Positions 1 to 7,907 of a stretch of DNA of 23,312 bases are shown here, one piece after another (position 1 is the stretch's first letter; each line of letters opens with the position of its first letter). The notes beneath the pieces are model-generated. The model saw only the letters and a list, made by a program, of their open reading frames with translations. It searched no databases and was not told the origin of the DNA. The position numbers and the translations under genes were made by a program. The stretch is taken from IMG/VR virus record IMGVR_UViG_2703718778_000014. The stretch is one strand, 5' to 3'. The stretch is from a virus. Its lineage: Duplodnaviria; Heunggongvirae; Uroviricota; Caudoviricetes.

Positions 1-204
1 CTCTCCCCGCGCCGCCTTACGCCGGTCTTCTTTAATTTTGAAATACAGGTTCGTCAGATATGTCAGCAGCCCAAACAGCAGACTCCCCAGCACGCCTATT
101 GCCGCCCACTGAGACGGGGAAACCCTGTCCAGCAACTGCAGGAACCAGTAGCCCGTTCCCACCGCTGACGTGGTGTATGACAAACCTGTTGTGATTTTTT
201 CCAT
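1..204 (-). CDS. Holin, phage 21 / Stx-phage S-type (pinholin-like); 5' part only, gene runs off the left edge
   Basis: Reverse-strand ATG at 204-202; the frame reads [68 protein letters not shown] with no stop before position 1; two hydrophobic segments and a charged tail match lambdoid S holins from memory. The ORF-track call 32..229(-) is a different frame. Confidence 0.55.
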
Positions 205-287
205 CTGGTACATACCCCGTCTCCCGCAATCCGGAAGCTCACAACAACAAGTGGGGCATCAGCTCACACCGACACCCCTGCGCATGG

Positions 288-557
288 TTACATCATCATT
301 TCGCCGTCAGGCTGAGGCTCTTCACTACCGTCAGGCTGAGACCCGACGCCATCTGAAACAGCACTGTCATCCGCAATGCCTTCCGGCTCCGGAACAGTCG
401 GTGCGCCCAGCAGTTCATCCAGAATGGCATCCACTTCTGCATCAAGACGCGCCTCAAGATTCTGGCGGAGTTTTTGTTTCAGTGCGCTCAGGACTTCTTC
501 AGAGCGCAGGACTTCCTTCACTGCCTCAGCAGTTACCAGCGATTTTATTTCTGACAT
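288..557 (-). CDS. Hypothetical acidic protein (89 aa) between the esterase and the holin
   Basis: Internal ATG of ORF 288..710(-) at 557 gives MSEIKSLVTAEAVKEVLRSEE...; the upstream extension looks non-coding. Weak RBS. Family not recognised. Confidence 0.4.
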   Translation of the reverse strand: MSEIKSLVTAEAVKEVLRSEEVLSALKQKLRQNLEARLDAEVDAILDELLGAPTVPEPEGIADDSAVSDGVGSQPDGSEEPQPDGEMMM

Positions 558-594
558 AGGATTTTCTCGTTGAAAGGTGTTGTCAAGAAAGTGA

Positions 595-777
595 CTACGG
601 AATGAGCGGATCTTCGGGTTTGCTTCCGGCTGACTGACTGGCGCTGATTTTCTCAGCGGCCCTTTTATCAATCTGCCTGCGCCAGAAATCGCGCACGACT
701 CTGTACCCACCCGAAAGAAGATACAGCACGCATACCACCGTACAGAAGTACAGCATCAGTTGATGAACAAATGTCAT
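595..777 (-). CDS. Possible small membrane protein (60 aa)
   Basis: ORF with a hydrophobic N-terminal segment (LMLYFCTVVCVLYLL) and a basic tail; weak RBS; could be spurious. Confidence 0.25.
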   Translation of the reverse strand: MTFVHQLMLYFCTVVCVLYLLSGGYRVVRDFWRRQIDKRAAEKISASQSAGSKPEDPLIP

Positions 778-870
778 AGTTTCTTACCGTTATGGTTGAC
801 AATGGCGATGACTTTTCAATAAAAGAAAGGCGATATGTGTTACATATCGTTCTCCATGAGGATACTCCTC

Positions 871-920
871 CGCCAGCGTCAGACTTATCCTCCCGTTCTC
901 CTCTGCGCTGGCGTTTTTTT
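871..920 (+). terminator. Putative plus-strand intrinsic terminator facing the 3' end of the esterase gene
   Basis: 8-bp GC stem cgccagcg (871-878) / cgctggcg (906-913) followed by TTTTTTT (914-920); the loop is long (27 nt), so this is uncertain. Confidence 0.25.
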
Positions 921-923
921 GTT

Positions 924-2912
924 TTATGATGAAGAGGTTGCCTGGTTAATGCTTACCATGATACTGCGGAACATGACAGGATAAGATTTTCCCTGATTTG
1001 CGCTGATACCTGTCACTGTGATGTTATCCACCGTAAAGGCAGAAGTGACCGGACCTTCTTTCAGTGCAAAACCTGTTTTCTCTTCTCCGTCAAGTACCGG
1101 AATAACCTGGTGATTGCCGCCTCCTTTATATTTAAAGACAAGCGTGTGCCAGTTGTTATTAACCGCACCGAATGACTCAATTTTTGTATTAGGCTGTGTT
1201 TTACCGTGATACATGACATCCAGGTTACTGGCTTTTGTCTGAGTGAAAAAGGAGGCCATCATATTGCTGCCGTTGCCTTCCTGAGTCCACCCGGAAACTG
1301 GCAGGTAAACACCAAAGAGGTATTTGTCATCTGCAACCTGGGTACCATCCGGCAACCTGAATTCAAGTTTTATTTCACCGCCATTTTCATACAGAGCACG
1401 GGCATCTTCAGCTGATACTCCTGCTGACAGCATCCACGGTCCCTGTTTGCCCTCATGCTGCTTAATCTTCAGCACCTGTCTGCTTTCATCATTAACAAAC
1501 TCGGCGACACCGTCCCGGGCATTCCAGTGCTGGGCTGCCCAGTTACCACCGAGGCTGTCTTTCTCAACAGCTGAATTATACTCAACAACCGTTCTTCTCT
1601 GAGGTGCATCCTGTGATAACGCAGCATCCTCCACAGGTGACGGGAAATTTCCGGATGTAACGTTTTCCCGTTCATCTCCTGCAACTACCGTTTCTGACCG
1701 CCCGGTGATAAACGCCGGGTATTTGCCTGCGTGGGTCAGAATTGCGGTTGCAAGACGATCTGAAATAATTCCACGCCGCGCCCATGAACCGAAATGGCTT
1801 GCCCTGTCACCTGACGTCCAGCTGACAGAACTGTCTCGCCACTTCGAACCGGAGTAGCCAATACCTTCAATATCAGGATCTTCTGCCGGATTATTGGTCT
1901 GCACATTTACCCCGCTTCCATCAACCATGAAAGGGACAAAGTGAATATTCTGCGCTGCCTTATTTTTATATCCACCGTATACAGTTTCATAAGACGCAGC
2001 ATATTTTTCTTTCCAGTAATGCGTCGTATCGCCACAAACCCACGGAACGCTCAGTGCCGAGCCCCCCACGCACTGCCCTGACATATCAGCGATGTCAGCA
2101 CGGAATTTCTGTACCATGCCAGTAAAAAGAGCATTATGACTCTGGCTTCCTGAAGCCAGATCACTCTCCCCCTGCATCCAGATTACCGCCAGCAGGATAT
2201 TTCCGGGATTTTTAGCCAGCGCGACTTTCGTGCGACTTAACAGATCCTGGTACAGCGGCTTATCAGCTCCCCACAATGCAGAATCAGGGCTTGCCCCGGA
2301 AGAGGCGTTAAATGTTCCCTCATTACCTGTAGTCACTCCCGAGCCTCCACGACAGCATGGAACCAGAAGAATGCCCGCATTCGCCGGTATAAACGGTAAC
2401 AGTTTTTTGGCAATATGCAGTCCCTGACCCACACAACCATACTGACCTTTATTGAGGTCTGCCCGGGGGTGATTTTTTTCACTCATATCCATCACATCAT
2501 GAAGACAATGATCTGCCGGAATAACATCGTTATAGGTGCAGGGAACGCCTCGCGGCGTAACGGTACGTCGACGGGCAAGCTGCTTAATTCTCGGATCAGG
2601 GCGATCATAAGAATCAGGTAACGGTACTCCCTCTCCAAAAGACATACCATTTGACTGACCCGCCAGCGCGACAACATAATAATATTCAGGCTCACCGGTC
2701 TTGCTGATAGCCGTCTCCCCGTCACCCGATGGTTTAACCAGCACCGGCGTGGTGACATCACCTTCCGCCGCAATAGCCTGCATCAGGGTATAAGGCGTGA
2801 TGGCGACAGGGCTGCCAAATGGCTGCCACCCCTCCTTCAGTTTTTGTGTCAGTCGTTCAGCAAGGTCTGACGGCGATGCCGCCCTGACCACATCGTAGTG
2901 TTTAAATGCCAT
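924..2912 (-). CDS. nanS: Phage sialate O-acetylesterase, NanS-p-like (SGNH/SASA hydrolase family), 662 aa
   Basis: ATG at 2912 with RBS GGGAGG; GQSN catalytic block (VVALAGQSNGMSFGEG) typical of sialic-acid-specific 9-O-acetylesterases; size and position between tRNAs and holin match the nanS-p genes of Stx-type prophages. Confidence 0.75.
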   Translation of the reverse strand: MAFKHYDVVRAASPSDLAERLTQKLKEGWQPFGSPVAITPYTLMQAIAAEGDVTTPVLVKPSGDGETAISKTGEPEYYYVVALAGQSNGMSFGEGVPLPDSYDRPDPRIKQLARRRTVTPRGVPCTYNDVIPADHCLHDVMDMSEKNHPRADLNKGQYGCVGQGLHIAKKLLPFIPANAGILLVPCCRGGSGVTTGNEGTFNASSGASPDSALWGADKPLYQDLLSRTKVALAKNPGNILLAVIWMQGESDLASGSQSHNALFTGMVQKFRADIADMSGQCVGGSALSVPWVCGDTTHYWKEKYAASYETVYGGYKNKAAQNIHFVPFMVDGSGVNVQTNNPAEDPDIEGIGYSGSKWRDSSVSWTSGDRASHFGSWARRGIISDRLATAILTHAGKYPAFITGRSETVVAGDERENVTSGNFPSPVEDAALSQDAPQRRTVVEYNSAVEKDSLGGNWAAQHWNARDGVAEFVNDESRQVLKIKQHEGKQGPWMLSAGVSAEDARALYENGGEIKLEFRLPDGTQVADDKYLFGVYLPVSGWTQEGNGSNMMASFFTQTKASNLDVMYHGKTQPNTKIESFGAVNNNWHTLVFKYKGGGNHQVIPVLDGEEKTGFALKEGPVTSAFTVDNITVTGISANQGKSYPVMFRSIMVSINQATSSS

Positions 2913-3104
2913 GAATCCTCCCGGCCGGAATAATGTTCTGAGTCAGAGAAGGCTCGGGCTGACCTCCGGAAACACAAAAGTCACACAAAACAGCCCGCAA
3001 AAAAGAAATACGCCCTTACATACAGTTGCGCAATGTGATTACTGTAAGGTATTATTAGGGCGCTGAATAAATTACTTCACGTTTTGTTATTTATTCCTTG
3101 CCAA

Positions 3105-3130
3105 CCGCTCTTCCCTGGAGCGGTTTTTTT
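3105..3130 (+). terminator. Hairpin plus T7 tract (plus-strand half of a bidirectional terminator at the edge of repeat unit A)
   Basis: ccgctc (3105-3110) / gagcgg (3118-3123) stem followed by ttttttt (3124-3130); paired with a second hairpin at 3142-3161 whose T-tract is on the minus strand. Confidence 0.4.
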
Positions 3131-3136
3131 GCATGT

Positions 3137-3304
3137 AAAAAGGCTCCTGCAATGAGGAGCCTGGATGTATGCCTAATCTCTGTATACTACATGGTGCCGG
3201 GTGCCTCCCGGTGAGTTCAGTATCAGCACCTGAACCCGCACAGAAAGGATAGAGTAGAAACACCTGCGCTGATATGCCCCTCCGCTCAGGGGGATTCACC
3301 ATGC
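3137..3304 (-). ncRNA. Candidate structured small RNA, repeat unit A (boundaries approximate)
   Basis: Conserved blocks shared with units B and C; variable 8-bp stem gagttcag (3213-3220) / ctgaaccc (3230-3237) fully paired only on the minus strand (G-U); minus-sense terminator hairpin 3142-3161 plus T-tract; no conserved ORF. Confidence 0.35.
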
Positions 3305-3398
3305 AGAACTTTTTTAACAACTCCCCGTCAGACAGGCAAGCATCAACCATCTGAACTGTGAGGGATTTAACATTTAACAACACAGCCTTTTCCCGCAC

Positions 3399-3563
3399 AA
3401 AAAAAGCCCCTCAGGAGAGGGGCCGATCGCTGTGTATACACCATAAGCAGCATAGTGCCGGGTGCCTCCCGGTAGATTCAGCCTGACTACTGAATCTGCG
3501 TATTGTGACCATCGCTATGGAGACCATGTCAGACGCCCCTCCGCACAGGGGGATTCACTATGC
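3399..3563 (-). ncRNA. Candidate structured small RNA, repeat unit B (boundaries approximate)
   Basis: Same conserved blocks; variable stem agattcag (3474-3481) / ctgaatct (3490-3497) with compensatory changes relative to A and C; strong minus-sense terminator gcccctcaggagaggggc (3406-3423) followed by TTTTTTT. Confidence 0.35.
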
Positions 3564-3779
3564 TGGCTCGTTTTTACAAGACTTCCATCAATCAGACAAT
3601 AGTCCATCAACCGAATTGTGAGTCATTTAACATTTCCATGAGGTAACTGATATCCAGCTAACAATCATCTGCAATGGACGAAGCCAGTTCCAGAACTTGC
3701 CCACACTACAGCAACAACCACTGCATTCCAAAAATGGAATTTTGGGAGATTACTTCTGCAAACAGCTACCGATAAATAT

Positions 3780-3916
3780 ATCCCTGATTGCCTGCGCAGT
3801 CTGTTCAAAACGCCCGGTATCCAGCTCAACGCCTATAGCACGACGCCCCAGCGCCATCGCTGCTTTAACTGCCGAACCCTACCCCATGAAGAAATCTGCA
3901 ACCAGGCCACCCGGCA
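3780..3916 (-). pseudogene. Relic copy of the 3' end of the DNA methyltransferase gene, with an in-frame stop
   Basis: Nucleotide-level match to 5316-5445 (C-terminal codons of the methyltransferase at 5290..6348); the Ser codon of the FFMGSGST motif (tcg) is TAG here (forward cta at 3879-3881); no start codon or N-terminal region present. Confidence 0.5.
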
Positions 3917-4033
3917 GAAGGGAGACTACAGCCCGCAATTCGAAAAAGGCCGCGCAGTTGCGCAGAGTGATTACTATGGGGTATTATTCGCCAGCTGAAA
4001 TATTACTTCACGTTTTATTGTTTATTCCTTGCC

Positions 4034-4061
4034 GCCCGCGTCTCCCAGCGCGGGCTTTTTT
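4034..4061 (+). terminator. Hairpin plus T6 tract (plus-strand half of a bidirectional terminator at the edge of repeat unit C)
   Basis: gcccgcg (4034-4040) / cgcgggc (4049-4055) followed by tttttt; second hairpin gcccctccagagaggggc at 4074-4091 serves the minus strand. Confidence 0.4.
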
Positions 4062-4065
4062 GTCC

Positions 4066-4245
4066 ATAAGAAAGCCCCTCCAGAGAGGGGCTGAAGCCGC
4101 ATTTCTGTATCACCATGAGCATGGTGCCGGGTGCCTCCCGGTGAGTTCAGCCCGGTGACACTAAACCCGCGTATTCTCGCTTACGATCATCAAAGAGATC
4201 ATACCGTTCACCAGTCGCCCCTCCGCACAGGGGGATTCACCATGC
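4066..4245 (-). ncRNA. Candidate structured small RNA, repeat unit C (boundaries approximate)
   Basis: Same conserved blocks; variable stem gagttcag (4143-4150) / ctaaaccc (4161-4168) has two mismatches on the plus strand that are G-U pairs on the minus strand; minus-sense terminator hairpin at 4074-4091. Confidence 0.35.
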
Positions 4246-4380
4246 GAAATTTTTTTAACAAATGCCCAGTCTGACAGGCAACTGTCAACTTACTGAATTG
4301 TGAGGAATTTAACACTTCACAGCACAATATCTTTCCAGCACCCCAAAATCATCTGGACAGGAGAAAATCTTCTCCCCCAG

Positions 4381-4809
4381 TCAGAGTTTAAAATCCAGCA
4401 CGCCATTTCTAAATGCTTTATATACTCCTGAAGACGGTGGTGATGGTATATCAGCATTCTTTACTGCATTCATCGCTTCACGACATAAATCGGGATCACC
4501 GCTTTCTCTTTTAACCTGTAGCAGAAGACCATTCGGGGCCATATACATTCTCAGTGAACACTCTTTTCCTGAATACTTACCCGCATCCTTTAACTGTTCT
4601 TCTATGGCTTCCCTGACCTGAATGGCATACTGCCGGATTTCTTCACTGGCATCAGGGGTACGTTCCGATAAGCTCAAATTTTGCGACTTTATTAATTTAT
4701 CTGAGTGATGCAGCGAAGCATCATAATTATTTGTCGATACATCTTTTGTGCAGCCAGTTGTCAGACTGGCTAATATCAAAACAAGAACCGGTACAGCACG
4801 GCAATACAT
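4381..4809 (-). CDS. Putative lipoprotein (142 aa), cargo gene in the stx-equivalent slot
   Basis: ATG at 4809 with RBS GGAGATGG; N-terminal signal peptide MYCRAVPVLVLILASLTTGC with a lipobox-like LTTGC; AT-rich upstream region suggests its own promoter. Family not recognised. Confidence 0.55.
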   Translation of the reverse strand: MYCRAVPVLVLILASLTTGCTKDVSTNNYDASLHHSDKLIKSQNLSLSERTPDASEEIRQYAIQVREAIEEQLKDAGKYSGKECSLRMYMAPNGLLLQVKRESGDPDLCREAMNAVKNADIPSPPSSGVYKAFRNGVLDFKL

Positions 4810-5087
4810 TTATCCATCTCCATATTAACAAGAACAATTATCTATAAAATATAGTAAATATGCGGGATCCGGGAGGACTTGTAACTATCATCTCCGGATC
4901 AGCATGTAGTTTTTATTTTTCCGGATGATATATGCCGCAATAATACCCCTGCATACAGATGCCTGCAAATATCTACGAAGCATCCGGCGAGAATAAACAA
5001 GGAAATCTGAGACTATCTTATATGATAGCCTGTTGCTCAAAAGACAATGATTCACTCATCAGAGCTAACAACGCATGATGCAGATAA

Positions 5088-5164
5088 TGGACCGCCATCG
5101 AGGACTCGAACCCCGCGCAGCCAGCTCCGAAGGCTGGCGCTCTATCCCGATGAGCTAATGGCGG
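5088..5164 (-). tRNA. tRNA-Arg, anticodon UCG (77 nt including CCA)
   Basis: Manual cloverleaf on the minus strand: acceptor CCGCCAT/ATGGCGG, D-arm GCTC...GAGC, anticodon stem CCAGC/GCTGG with loop CUUCGGA, T-arm CGGGG-TTCGAGT-CCTCG, 3' CCA. C1-G72 pair is unusual. Confidence 0.7.
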
Positions 5165-5173
5165 TATGTGATA

Positions 5174-5249
5174 TGGTGGCCCTTGCTGGATTTGAACCAG
5201 CGACCTGGCGATTATGAGTCGCTCGCTCTCACCACTGAGCTAAAGGGCC
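5174..5249 (-). tRNA. tRNA-Ile2 type with anticodon CAU (ileX/ileZ-like; tRNA-Met not formally excluded)
   Basis: Minus strand reads GGCCCTTTAGCTCAGTGGTGAGAGCGAGCGACTCATAATCGCCAGGTCGCTGGTTCAAATCCAGCAAGGGCCACCA; canonical arms, anticodon loop CUCAUAA; close to E. coli ileX as recalled. Confidence 0.8.
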
Positions 5250-5289
5250 GGGCGCAGGATAATAACGGTACGTAACTAATCCTGCAATA

Positions 5290-6348
5290 TCATCCGTTCT
5301 GGCTGGCTAAATCCTGAACTTCCCTGACCGTCTGCTCAAAACGTTCAGTCTCCAGCTCAACGCCTGTAGCACGACGCCCCAACACCATCGCTGCTTTGAC
5401 TGTCGAACCCGACCCCATGAAGAAATCTGCAACCAGGTCACCCGGACGACTGCTCGCACTGATTATCTGCTGCAGCATTTCTGCCGGTTTTTCGCACGGA
5501 TGTTTCCCGGGATAGTACTGCACCGGTTTATGCGTCCACACATCGGTGTACGGCACCCGCACCGTCACACCGAAATACCGCCGCAGATGCTTATATTCAC
5601 TCTGCAGTTCCGTATACTGCCGGTTCAGTTCACTGTATGTGCTGACCAGTTGGTGATGTGGCTTTTCCAGTTCTCCGCGCTGATGCTTCTCTTCTGCCAC
5701 CCGGGCAAACAGCGCCTGTAATTTCAGATAATCGCTTTCGTCCGGTAACTGCCACTGGCTGGCACTGAACCAGTGCGACACCATATTTTTCTTTCCTGTG
5801 GCATCCACTATCTGTTTTGCCGTTATCCCCAGGGCAGCACGCGCATCACGAAAGTAAGAAATCAGCGGGGCCATCACATGCTGTTTCAGTGCCCTGCCCT
5901 TCGCCTCATACCCGGCATCTTTCGGGCGATACGGCCCCTGATAATGTTCCGCGAACAGAATGCGCTCTGTGGCGGGGAAATACGCCCTCAGGCTTTCCTT
6001 GTTGCACCCGTTCCAGCGTCCGGACGGCTTTGCCCAGATAATATGGTTCAGCACACTGAAGTGTTCACGCATCATGATTTCGATATCAGATGCCAGGCGA
6101 TGGCCACAGAACAGGTAAAGACTTCCGGCAGGTTTCAGCACCCGCCAGAACTGCGCAAGACACTGGTCCAGCCACTTCAGGTAATCATCGTCGCCCTTCC
6201 ACTGGTTATCCCAGCCCTCAGGCTTCACTTTAAAGTACGGCGGGTCCGTGACTATCAGATCAACAGAATTTTCGGGTAACGACCGGATAAATTCCAGGCA
6301 GTCAGCGTTGATTAACTCACAACTGGATATTTTTACAGTGTTAAGCAT
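5290..6348 (-). CDS. DNA methyltransferase, N6-adenine/N4-cytosine family (DPPY motif), 352 aa
   Basis: ATG at 6348; motif IV DPPY near the N-terminus (LIVTDPPYF) and motif I FxGxG near the C-terminus (DFFMGSGST), i.e. beta-class order; position after Q and before tRNAs as in Stx-type phages. Confidence 0.8.
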   Translation of the reverse strand: MLNTVKISSCELINADCLEFIRSLPENSVDLIVTDPPYFKVKPEGWDNQWKGDDDYLKWLDQCLAQFWRVLKPAGSLYLFCGHRLASDIEIMMREHFSVLNHIIWAKPSGRWNGCNKESLRAYFPATERILFAEHYQGPYRPKDAGYEAKGRALKQHVMAPLISYFRDARAALGITAKQIVDATGKKNMVSHWFSASQWQLPDESDYLKLQALFARVAEEKHQRGELEKPHHQLVSTYSELNRQYTELQSEYKHLRRYFGVTVRVPYTDVWTHKPVQYYPGKHPCEKPAEMLQQIISASSRPGDLVADFFMGSGSTVKAAMVLGRRATGVELETERFEQTVREVQDLASQNG

Positions 6349-6849: not shown

Positions 6850-6878
6850 AATATATGCTCTTCAGTTCTATTTTGCAA
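6850..6878 (-). promoter_or_regulatory. Candidate late promoter pR' just after the Q gene
   Basis: On the minus strand: -35 TTGCAA (6878-6873), 17-nt spacer, -10 TATATT (6855-6850); about 60-75 nt upstream of the tR'-like terminator, as in the lambda pR'-tR' arrangement. Confidence 0.3.
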
Positions 6879-7551
6879 GATATGGTTCTAAATTAATCGA
6901 CTTTTGCCGTGAACGTACCCGCATTACTGAAATAAGAGCATCCCTGTCCAGCATCTCTGCACTACCCCGCATAGCCAACCAGTGAGGCCTGTGTGTTTTT
7001 GTCCATGTAGATTTAGCAACTCCTATGAACACCGCTAACTCCTGATGTTCATAGGTCTCACGCCCTGCCAGCTCACTCTTCACATCCTGTGCCGCCAGCC
7101 AAATCAGTTTCTTCAGACGATCCAGCGTTTTCCCTGCAATTTTTCTGGTACCAGCCTGAGCTTTAAACTCACCCCATACCCATTGTGTTATAGTGACCTG
7201 ATCTTCCCAGCAAACATTTCCACTGTAGCACCACAGTAACCACGCCTTCTGATGTTCTTCCAGTTCCAGAACGGCACGCCGCCACGATGATGTTGCAAAC
7301 TCAACCGGACTGACCAGCGCAATTGATGAGCCTTTCGCCAGTGATTGTTTACCCGGGATCGGTTGATTATCCCGCGTGATCATTTTTCCGGTTACCTCAT
7401 CGCGATAACGAATTTTTTTGCGTCTGTAACACCCTGTATCGAACAGGGCATTCTCCTGCCAGGCTTCCAGCTGGCCTTTTGTCGCCCCACTGAGATCCGC
7501 AGTGGCAATCATGAGTTGCTCACGAACAAACTGTAAATACTGGTTATTCAT
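6868..7551 (-). CDS. Late antiterminator Q-like protein (QuuQ/YdfT-like family by position and size)
   Basis: ATG at 7551 overlaps the rusA stop (ATGA); sits between rusA and the pR'/terminator region as Q does in lambdoid phages. Family assignment is from gene order and recalled Qin-prophage context, not a motif match. Confidence 0.5.
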   Translation of the reverse strand: MNNQYLQFVREQLMIATADLSGATKGQLEAWQENALFDTGCYRRKKIRYRDEVTGKMITRDNQPIPGKQSLAKGSSIALVSPVEFATSSWRRAVLELEEHQKAWLLWCYSGNVCWEDQVTITQWVWGEFKAQAGTRKIAGKTLDRLKKLIWLAAQDVKSELAGRETYEHQELAVFIGVAKSTWTKTHRPHWLAMRGSAEMLDRDALISVMRVRSRQKSINLEPYLAK

Positions 7552-7907
7552 GCGCACTCCAGTTCTGTGATTTTTATCCCCAGCCGCCCGCCAGGAACAG
7601 GCAGGCCACGCACAATATTGATTTCATCAAACTGCTCATCGTCCATTAACAACCCCGCATGCGTAAGCGCATCCAGCGGCGCTTTCAGAATATTGTCCAG
7701 GTCACGGCGGCGCTTATCCGGTGGCTCTGCAATAATCCTGATTACCAGCCTTCCGGACAGGCTTAATTTCAGCCGCTGCTGGTTAACAATAAGCGCCACA
7801 GCACGGCGATAGCGCTTTCCCTCCTCCGAGATAAAATATGTGCTGCCACGACGACGCCAGTAGGTGTTCACCGTTGGCGGGTAAGGTAAAACCAAATCTA
7901 TGAGCAT
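7548..7907 (-). CDS. rusA: Holliday junction resolvase RusA (119 aa)
   Basis: ATG at 7907 with RBS GAGGTG; conserved RusA blocks PPTVNTYW, DKRRRDLDN and GGRLGIKITE. Confidence 0.8.
   Translation of the reverse strand: MLIDLVLPYPPTVNTYWRRRGSTYFISEEGKRYRRAVALIVNQQRLKLSLSGRLVIRIIAEPPDKRRRDLDNILKAPLDALTHAGLLMDDEQFDEINIVRGLPVPGGRLGIKITELECA

Follow-up and report, generated by a model that had tools for sequence, protein, structure and literature searches.

Three tandem STnc100-family small RNA cassettes beside the TolA-like moron of a lambdoid prophage

The 23,312-nt DNA stretch analysed here (the window; IMG/VR record IMGVR_UViG_2703718778_000014, Caudoviricetes) carries three paralogous minus-strand units, A, B and C, within positions 3000-4400, between a TolA-like moron and a NanS-p-type esterase gene, and these units belong to the STnc100 family of small RNAs (sRNAs; Rfam RF02076). 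Scanning with cmscan against Rfam 15 gave three full-length minus-strand matches to RF02076, spanning model positions 1-206 of 206 and scoring 121-172 bits (Table 1), where the curated gathering score of the family, described as "Gammaproteobacterial sRNA", is 47 bits. An earlier reading of the window from its sequence alone (the sequence-only reading) had proposed three paralogous minus-strand units at 3137-3304, 3399-3563 and 4066-4245; this is borne out, and the proposed ends agree with an RNA running from the PasD-type 5' end GCAUGGUG to the terminators. The units are probably sRNA cassettes with promoters of their own, multiplied by cassette duplication, whose RNAs bind Hfq and pair with targets in trans through a 3' linker.

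The idea of a novel family does not hold. The units are already known, since the STnc100 family is catalogued in Rfam and its location at the moron site was published in 2014; it is represented in enterohaemorrhagic Escherichia coli (EHEC) by EcOnc27/sRNA103 and is a sister of PasD1/PasD2 of enteropathogenic E. coli (EPEC). As a catalogued family at its known locus the units are of little weight as a discovery, and what is added to it below (a pseudoknot, a CRP-like site, arrays of cassettes) is modest.

Anatomy of the three units

The elements of STnc100 are all present, and in order, in A, B and C: the closing helix P1 (GCAUGGUG/CACCAUGC), hairpin 1 (CCCC-UNNGCGGN-GGGG), an 8-bp stem, hairpin 3 (CCGGGAGGCACCCGG), a linker and a terminator. 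The minimum free energy (MFE) fold of unit A recovers P1, hairpin 1, the 8-bp stem, hairpin 3 and the terminator. Both of the near-identical blocks that the sequence-only reading had seen are present in the units, unit B having catAgtgcc with a compensating change on the other strand. The 8-bp stems were likewise read correctly (gagttcag/ctgaaccc in A, agattcag/ctgaatct in B, gagttcag/ctaaaccc in C), the A-C and C-A mismatches of the plus strand being G.U pairs on the minus strand, and each unit does end in a GC hairpin and T-tract on the minus strand. MFE z-scores do not separate the strands (-2.0 to -2.8 for minus, -1.8 to -2.8 for plus); the minus strand is assigned because of the G.U pairs, the T-tracts and the covariance model. 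Terminator-like sites number 14 in the region, compared with 3.6 +/- 1.9 in shuffles. The 3' linkers differ among the units: that of A is of the EcOnc27 type, identical at 30 of 34 positions (~88%) to the target of the EcOnc27 Northern probe, and those of B and C are of other types.

The cloverleaf-like core was also considered as a tRNA, tmRNA, riboswitch or ribozyme; this was rejected, as ARAGORN finds only two true tRNAs, and E-value-mode cmscan of positions 1-5400 gave nothing credible over the units besides STnc100. IpeX, a ~167-nt RNA in the same Q-to-lysis slot of DLP12, was also tried as a family member and discarded, there being no Rfam match at E<=0.1 across quuD-nmpC-essD of the K-12 prophage.

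Conserved fold and an internal pseudoknot

Relatives were collected as loci carrying CCGGGAGGCACCCGGCAC from IMG/VR and a few enterobacterial genomes, and a search for units with nhmmer gave 132 hits, with 98 distinct units aligned (alignment A1). A 15-nt GC-rich pattern in the genome collection produced mostly chance matches in high-GC genomes; seven loci have real units, five of them in Kosakonia, Pluralibacter, two Enterobacter species and Salmonella diarizonae. The whole-unit MAFFT alignment misaligns the central variable region and the variants of hairpin 1 (CUUUC..GAAAG, CCAUC..GAUGG). The covariation of hairpin 1, seen by eye in divergent members, was therefore left uncounted, and anchor-based extraction with unfitted permutation tests was used for the stem and the pseudoknot. 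A second, anchored alignment (A2, 63 rows) was fitted to the structure and serves for per-pair counts only.

The core fold is supported by covariation. P1 shows both-sided changes in seven of its eight pairs, one pair being, for example, G-C 48 times and A-U 40 times in A1, and the AUAGUG/CACUAU of unit B is one such compensation. Taken together, P1 and hairpins 1 and 3 have 94.5% of cells paired, compared with 44-54% when the partner is slid, although hairpin CCGGGAGGCACCCGG is itself essentially invariant across relatives. The 8-bp stem has 47 distinct 3' strands family-wide, which form 7.30 of 8 pairs with their own partner region, against 5.59 when that region is set against the strands of other units; the observed mean was reached in none of 5000 permutations. 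Both-sided changes affect all eight stem pairs, which upholds the earlier claim that the stem is kept by compensatory changes.

The loop of this stem is complementary to 6-8 nt lying 3' of hairpin 1, in the three units as well as in PasD2 (Table 1). Over 60 distinct segment/loop classes, the mean duplex energy is -9.12 kcal/mol with the own partner and -4.34 kcal/mol with unrelated loops; 43 of the 60 fall in the top 10%, and the observed mean was reached in 0 of 5000 permutations. Stem and pseudoknot together are 89.1% paired in A2, as against 55.3% when shuffled and 32-40% when slid, with both-sided changes in 15 of 15 pairs. The outermost pseudoknot pair is weak, so that the helix is effectively of ~6 bp. 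In 52 of 55 classes the loop strand lies flush with the 3' side of the loop; a linker of 12 nt or more leads to the stem, and by H-type geometry the pseudoknot appears, on our reading, sterically feasible. The pseudoknot pairing is absent from the nested consensus line that accompanies the Rfam matches, but a covariance model cannot carry pseudoknots; nor is the pairing mentioned in the text of Zhu, Shabalina and Storz (2026 preprint). It is possible that it is already annotated in the Rfam seed alignment.

Several blocks of the core are strongly conserved: across the 98 units, conservation is complete or reaches at least 90% in GGUGAAUCCCC, in loop 1 GCG(G), in the GCG that precedes the stem and in UCACCGGGAGGCACCCGGCACC. 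The second pair of the 8-bp stem (A2 columns 13/33; 3236/3214 in unit A) is G.U in 39 of 63 classes and A-U in 18, and the GCG before and the UCA after the stem are nearly invariant. From the sequences, this pair and its flanking GCG/UCA look like a recognition or tertiary-contact site.

Promoters, CRP-like sites and RNA ends

Each unit is preceded by TTGCCT or TTGTCT, a spacer of 17-18 nt and TAAAAA, which places the predicted start at the G of GCAUGGUG. Upstream of most of the 98 units, the same spacing recurs between a -35 TTG and a -10-like hexamer rich in A/T. A simple promoter scanner missed the promoter of unit A because TAAAAA fails its T6 rule. The 5' ends listed for PasD1 and PasD2 are the G equivalent to that of GCAUGGUG (Table S6, PMC8550237), and Salmonella STnc100 promoters are reported to have an RpoD signal in chromatin immunoprecipitation with exonuclease digestion (ChIP-exo; PMC10794520).

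Further upstream lies a putative CRP site in each unit, matching the CRP consensus at 9 of 10 positions. Of the 32 CRP-like sites with at least 8/10 matches in 135 distinct upstream regions, 30 are centred at -60.5 to -62.5. The position -61.5 is the classical class I CRP position, as in the lac promoter. The promoter of EcOnc27 in EHEC strain Sakai (Sp5, L242 upstream of 6452) has the same layout, with TGTAA-N6-TCACA at -61.5. The sequence TGTTAAATT was considered as the extended -10 of a distal promoter for RNAs of ~222 nt and rejected, for Sakai breaks the hexamer (TGTAATCTG); the CRP reading is favoured because Sakai keeps both CRP half-sites while breaking the -10-like hexamer.

Table 1. 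Features of the sRNA cluster, its neighbourhood and related cassette arrays. Positions are those of the window, except for the array loci.
Feature	Position	Strand	Details
Unit A, RF02076 match	3332-3131	minus	164.1 bits, E 2e-37
Unit A, sRNA gene	3134-3304	minus	RNA delimited by PasD-type 5' end and terminator
Unit A, CRP-like site	3357-3372	minus	TGTTA-N6-TCACA, centred at -60.5
Unit A, -35; -10	3334-3339; 3311-3316	minus	TTGCCT; TAAAAA; by eye
Unit A, P1	3297-3304/3190-3196	minus	
Unit A, hairpin 1	3277-3292	minus	
Unit A, pseudoknot strands	3268-3274 + 3221-3227	minus	segment after hairpin 1 UAUCAGC, stem loop GCUGAUA
Unit A, 8-bp stem	3230-3237/3213-3220	minus	
Unit A, invariant hairpin	3197-3211	minus	
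Unit A, 3' linker	3163-3189	minus	
Unit A, terminator	3141-3162	minus	followed by U-tract
Unit B, RF02076 match	3592-3397	minus	120.8 bits, E 2.4e-26
Unit B, sRNA gene	3397-3563	minus	without convergent partner
Unit B, CRP-like site	3617-3632	minus	centred at -61.5
Unit B, -35; -10	3594-3599; 3571-3576	minus	TTGTCT; TAAAAA
Unit B, P1	3556-3563/3450-3457	minus	compensatory change
Unit B, hairpin 1	3536-3551	minus	
Unit B, pseudoknot strands	3528-3533 + 3482-3487	minus	segment after hairpin 1 UCUGAC, stem loop GUCAGG
Unit B, 8-bp stem	3490-3497/3474-3481	minus	
Unit B, invariant hairpin	3458-3472	minus	
Unit B, terminator	3405-3424	minus	
Unit C, RF02076 match	4274-4062	minus	172.3 bits, E 1.6e-39
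Unit C, sRNA gene	4062-4245	minus	
Unit C, CRP-like site	4299-4314	minus	centred at -61.5
Unit C, -35; -10	4276-4281; 4252-4257	minus	TTGCCT; TAAAAA
Unit C, P1	4238-4245/4119-4126	minus	
Unit C, hairpin 1	4218-4233	minus	
Unit C, pseudoknot strands	4209-4214 + 4152-4157	minus	segment after hairpin 1 CUGGUG, stem loop CACCGG
Unit C, 8-bp stem	4161-4168/4143-4150	minus	
Unit C, invariant hairpin	4127-4141	minus	
Unit C, terminator	4073-4092	minus	
PasD2, pseudoknot strands			segment after hairpin 1 AAUGAUC, stem loop GAUCAUU
Plus-strand gene 1	3026-3130	plus	convergent with unit A; conserved body to CCUUGCC
Gene 1, -35-like; -10-like	3026-3031; 3050-3055	plus	TTGCGC, 18 nt, TATTAT
Gene 1, terminator	3103-3125	plus	T-tract to 3130
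Plus-strand gene 2	3958-4061	plus	convergent with unit C; body as gene 1
Gene 2, -35-like; -10-like	3958-3963; 3982-3987	plus	TTGCGC, 18 nt, TATTAT
Gene 2, terminator	4034-4055	plus	followed by T-tract
Antiterminator Q	6868-7557	minus	Pfam-confirmed
DNA methylase	5290-6348	minus	Pfam-confirmed
tRNA-Ile(CAU) + tRNA-Arg	5088-5249	minus	
TolA-like moron	4381-4809	minus	142 aa, TolA C-terminal domain (PF06519, 3.4e-22); stx-equivalent slot
DNA methyltransferase pseudogene remnant	3750-3914	minus	RefSeq annotation of the identical prophage of E. coli S19-651
DUF1737/SASA esterase (NanS-p type)	924-2912	minus	Pfam-confirmed
DUF1378	595-777	minus	
DUF826, holin	below 924	minus	
Cassette array, L011	2254-3392		
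Cassette array, L072	4338-5527 + 8338-8583		
Cassette array, L021	331-1056		
Cassette array, L032	1684-2409		

Known homologues

In EHEC strain EDL933, most of the 11 predicted STnc100 copies have RNA-seq reads, and a Northern blot confirmed one of them (PMC5331693). The "convergent sRNA pairs" described by Tree et al. (2014; PMC4104026) lie, in EHEC Sp3, 4, 5, 9, 10, 11, 15 and 17, between the moron coding sequence and a conserved downstream open reading frame (ORF), the pair of Sp5 being EcOnc27 and AsxR. The Hfq-crosslink peak of EcOnc27 lies at 1268411-1268490 in the coordinates of Table S2 of that study; once the offset is corrected via AsxR, it falls on the P1 3' strand, the linker and the terminator of the Sp5 STnc100. 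The 247-nt species of EcOnc27 is destabilised in a delta-hfq strain (PMC4104026). The locus of EcOnc27/sRNA103, 3' of stx2B in EHEC O157:H7, shares with ours the helices, the invariant blocks, the late strand, the slot between moron and esterase, and the promoter with its CRP-like layout, but has one cassette beside the stx moron where the window has three in tandem beside a TolA-like one.

PasD1 and PasD2 of EPEC E2348/69 (EcOnc13 in EHEC) are RNAs of 172-173 nt, validated by Northern blot and described as Hfq-dependent. They have many partners by RIL-seq (ligation and sequencing of interacting RNAs), with chimeras mostly in the last ~50 nt, and a predicted seed, UGUGAG, immediately 5' of the terminator (PMC8550237). 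Zhu, Shabalina and Storz (2026 preprint) report that PasD is structurally homologous to STnc100 and that Pas copies are not tandem. PasD2 starts with GCAUGGUGAAUCC, the same 5' end as our units, and PasD has the same P1, hairpin 1, 8-bp stem and pseudoknot, the same plan of core, linker and terminator, and the same location between Q and the esterase. It differs in scoring 41 bits against RF02076, in being without the 3' half of the invariant hairpin, in having another linker with the predicted seed, and in having no CRP-like site. The linkers of A, B and C are without UGUGAG, nor are the units near-identical to the 172-173-nt PasD; by sequence, the units are to be regarded as sister RNAs of PasD, not PasD itself. 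Discrete Hfq-associated transcripts have been reported for the homologues EcOnc27, PasD and STnc100_4.

OmrA/OmrB, PrrF1/PrrF2 and Qrr1-5 are other examples of paralogous sRNA genes that lie side by side and have separate promoters and terminators. As in our units, some blocks are common to the paralogues and others differ; those RNAs, however, are short, mostly unstructured Hfq sRNAs of the core genome, whereas the units here are prophage-borne and have a pseudoknotted core of 115 nt.

Proposed mode of action and alternatives

Family membership, fold, cassette anatomy and context come from the window and its relatives; statements on function are transferred from homologues. Each cassette would consist of a CRP-like site near -61.5, a sigma-70-type promoter, an RNA of ~170 nt and an intrinsic terminator, the cassettes standing head-to-tail on the late-gene strand with two convergent plus-strand sRNA genes 3' of A and C. 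The predicted RNA has a 5' core of ~115 nt closed by P1 and containing hairpin 1, the 8-bp stem, the pseudoknot and hairpin CCGGGAGGCACCCGG, followed by a single-stranded 3' linker of 25-30 nt and the terminator. By analogy with the homologues, the RNAs may be made from their own promoters in the lysogen, bound by Hfq through linker and terminator, and base-pair with targets in trans by means of the linker, which differs among A, B and C, while the pseudoknotted core would provide a stable 5' domain. During lytic growth, Q-modified polymerase would read through the three terminators. The three-copy layout probably arose when entire cassettes were recombined or duplicated.

Several points weigh against this account. 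Expression, RNA ends and Hfq binding in this prophage would be as in the homologues from which they are transferred. PasD abundance shows no significant fall in delta-hfq RNA-seq under activating conditions (PMC8550237 Table S2), which sits poorly with the Hfq-dependent stability seen on Northern blots. The CRP-like site is a consensus match, and PasD2 is without one. EHEC homologues give Northern species of 177, 187, 222 and 235/247 nt, longer than the ~170 nt predicted here, so that either a second upstream start or terminator read-through exists; a second start upstream of the units is possible. Some EDL933 STnc100 copies have ribosome footprints, with a ribosome coverage value of up to 3.2 (PMC5331693). 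Lastly, a seed-pairing sRNA needs no pseudoknotted core with near-invariant loops, and the model leaves this conservation unaccounted for.

The last point bears on a tentative alternative, which we hold to be possible but on the whole unlikely: the four-helix pseudoknotted core of STnc100/PasD with its near-invariant loops could itself bind a specific host or phage protein or a ligand, as decoy, sponge or sensor, with Hfq and linker pairing secondary and the tandem cassettes raising the dose. The core is conserved beyond the needs of a scaffold, its invariant blocks persisting across 98 units whose helices otherwise drift freely; both stem and pseudoknot are kept by many independent compensatory changes; G.U is the commonest second stem pair; and the flush, sterically feasible position of the pseudoknot strand points the same way. 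On the other hand, neither a partner protein nor a ligand is suggested by the gene neighbourhood, Rfam has no matching riboswitch, ribozyme or tRNA-like family, and PasD is abundant and has many RIL-seq partners via the linker even though the 3' half of its invariant hairpin is lost. Such a role is compatible with Hfq-bound, linker-pairing sRNAs and not exclusive of them. If the core were a recognition surface, STnc100 would be more than a seed-pairing sRNA that works with Hfq, and its dose might be tuned by CRP-controlled tandem cassettes.

It is improbable that the units act mainly in cis, insulating or terminating as a stack of intrinsic terminators and stabilising the 3' ends of the morons upstream of them (a tolA-like one here, stx2 in Sp5), with esterase, lysis and late genes kept silent in the lysogen and the RNAs as by-products. 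The excess of terminator-like sites, with three minus-strand and two plus-strand terminators in 1.1 kb, and the position, always between the moron and the first late gene, would suit such a function, and the longer EHEC Northern species could start upstream. For a terminator, however, ~30 nt suffice, and a covarying, pseudoknotted core of 115 nt is not needed; -35/-10 elements of their own are recurrent among divergent homologues, the 5' end of PasD is the first base of the core, and many trans targets occur in chimeras with the homologues, which also bind Hfq.

The sequence-only reading had regarded the units as a paralogous sRNA family in which a conserved scaffold presents a variable hairpin that sets the target specificity of each paralogue. 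The family and its late strand stand, but the specificity module is highly improbable. The hairpin does differ between units whose flanking blocks are near-identical; its stem changes are compensatory, however, and its loop covaries with an internal partner in the pseudoknot and so is not free to pair, so that the variation amounts to structure-preserving drift. The hairpin varies because both helices tolerate compensatory change, not through differing target-recognition loops, and in the homologues it is the 3' linker and terminator that hold the Hfq contacts, the chimeras and the predicted seed. As the linker differs among A, B and C, paralogues with different targets are still plausible, via the linker.

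There is next to no likelihood that the units code for small proteins, or that they are pieces of a coding gene or insertion sequence element: a mechanical 103-aa ORF crosses unit A (3087-3398, minus), and hypothetical proteins annotated over homologous loci in some phage records as well as the EDL933 ribosome footprints might be cited in favour, but the frame from the ATG in GCAUGGUG has 71 codons in A and 11 in C and is without an ATG in B (AUA), the short frames of 17, 28 and 10 codons noted earlier begin at a plus-strand ATG inside CACCATGC and are indeed not conserved, substitutions obey base-pairing rules rather than codon rules, and neither a transposase nor terminal repeats are present.

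Work on the STnc100 family gains concrete handles from the pseudoknot supported by covariation, the CRP-like site at -61.5 and the arrays that recur in other contigs. Paganini et al. (2025; PMC12711010) found that variants predictive of haemolytic uraemic syndrome (HUS) overlap the STnc100 copy 3' of stx2; by our own mapping, the HUS-predictive positions +90 and +103 lie in or beside the proposed -10/start site, which makes an explanation of these variants by promoter strength testable. STnc100 overexpression raised fimZ and espA transcripts, according to a study as it is cited in PMC12711010.

Convergent plus-strand sRNA genes

The second hairpins beside units A and C, which had been interpreted as giving bidirectional terminators, have their T-tracts on the plus strand and are instead the terminators of convergent plus-strand sRNA genes of the EcOnc08/21/42 type. 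The two genes share a common body (...UUACUUCACGUUUUNUUGUUUAUUCCUUGCC) and end in unrelated terminators. All 23 copies of this element in the collected loci lie on the strand opposite to an STnc100 unit and within 150 nt of its 3' end. The target of the EcOnc08/21/42 probe is matched at 28 of 31 positions by gene 2 and at 26 of 31 by gene 1, and the element aligns over body and terminator with the EPEC RIL-seq candidate E2348C_1409.E2348C_1408.IGR (Fig. S5 fragment).

Both EcOnc08/21/42 and AsxR/AgvB resemble the plus-strand genes in being antisense to late transcription and convergent with an STnc100-type unit. As with AsxR/AgvB, the genes lie just upstream of the esterase, and they have the upstream TTGCGC region in common with AsxR: the stretch gaaaaaggccgcgcagTTGCGCag upstream of gene 2 is shared with the AsxR promoter region of Sakai Sp5 as mapped by rapid amplification of cDNA ends. 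The transcribed body, in contrast, is unrelated to the conserved 3' 42 nt of AsxR/AgvB. Membership in AsxR/AgvB was rejected, since the genes fail the covariance-model test over the 3' ~42 nt (GUAUCUCAUGC..UUGCCCGAACCCAYUCGGGC), with no RF02703 or RF02702 match at E<=1 at 3026-3130 or 3958-4061 in a search that gave AsxR 88 bits in Sakai; no Rfam family matches the elements in the cmscan of 1-5400. We know of no anti-sRNA activity for plus-strand RNAs of the EcOnc08/21/42 type.

The 5' end of gene 1 is uncertain: it may lie at ~3062 (an RNA of ~69 nt) if the AsxR-equivalent promoter is used, or further upstream. The EcOnc08/21 species of Sakai Sp4 is ~271 nt by Northern blot (PMC4104026). The EcOnc08/21/42 Northern probe covers the apparent -35 to -10 region, i.e. 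sequence upstream of the ~69-nt start. A long plus-strand isoform (window 2860-3130) would run antisense to the esterase start codon (2912) and ribosome-binding site.

Genomic context and distribution

Neighbouring genes were taken from the RefSeq record of the identical prophage in E. coli S19-651, with a Pfam check of the flanking proteins. The order is that of a lambdoid late region: Q, methylase, tRNAs, TolA-like moron, units, SASA esterase and lysis genes, and the units lie, as is usual for STnc100, on the late-gene strand 3' of Q and a moron. Sakai Sp5 has Q, tRNAs, stx2AB, STnc100 (207.7 bits), convergent AsxR (88 bits) and the esterase, and PP2 of E2348/69 has the same order of neighbours. 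Since Sp5 shows the same frame, the units sit directly 3' of the stx-equivalent moron, their usual place. The earlier assignment of the cluster to the stx-equivalent slot is thus right as to neighbourhood, the slot proper being occupied by the TolA-like moron and the cluster lying directly 3' of it, as EcOnc27/AsxR lie 3' of stx2B.

Cassettes are ~255-260 bp long, and B and A are spaced by 259 bp. Tandem arrays of 3-5 divergent STnc100-like cassettes with a period of 253-262 bp occur in IMG/VR contigs, and the B-to-A spacing agrees with the period of four such arrays (L011, L021, L032 and L072). In L072, four cassettes lie directly 5' of holin, lysozyme and Rz genes, and the other flank has a DUF968 protein with a 216-aa ORF. 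The methyltransferase remnant separates cassette C, with plus-strand gene 2, from cassettes B and A; this points to a recombination joint, at which a second sRNA module was stacked into the prophage.

The exact 1.4-kb three-unit layout was found in nine of 5426 complete E. coli genomes, whereas no record among 50,697 of phages has it in full. Parts of the layout are present in 321 phage records, mostly of Stx phages, and in 2697 of the 5426 genomes, at up to 12 places per genome; with about half of complete genomes positive, the STnc100 family is very abundant in prophages. The RefSeq records inspected (e.g. NZ_CP075852 426287-427687) have no RNA annotation over the sRNA loci, so scans will keep rediscovering STnc100 copies, and masking or labelling is advised. 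Hypothetical proteins have been placed over homologous loci in some phage records, and a pseudogene call lies over PasD2 in E2348/69.

The TolA C-terminal domain is what group A colicins and the g3p of filamentous phages bind, and on this basis a role of the TolA-like moron as a decoy or exclusion factor is conceivable. The tRNA pair lies 3' of Q, as in Stx phages. ARAGORN calls the gene at 5174-5249 (minus) tRNA-Met (CAT); RefSeq calls the identical gene tRNA-Ile, like ileZ of Sakai, and the anticodon CAT is presumably lysidine-modified. A further small antisense gene (796-922, plus) lies between DUF1378 and the esterase stop (924); its -35, TTGACA at 796-801, is perfect, and it ends in the terminator GCCAGCG..CGCTGGC with T7 (872-919). 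It gives a sub-threshold match to Esr41 (31.8 bits, gathering score 102), and its place, orientation and architecture, with weak sequence similarity, are those of PasA of E2348/69.

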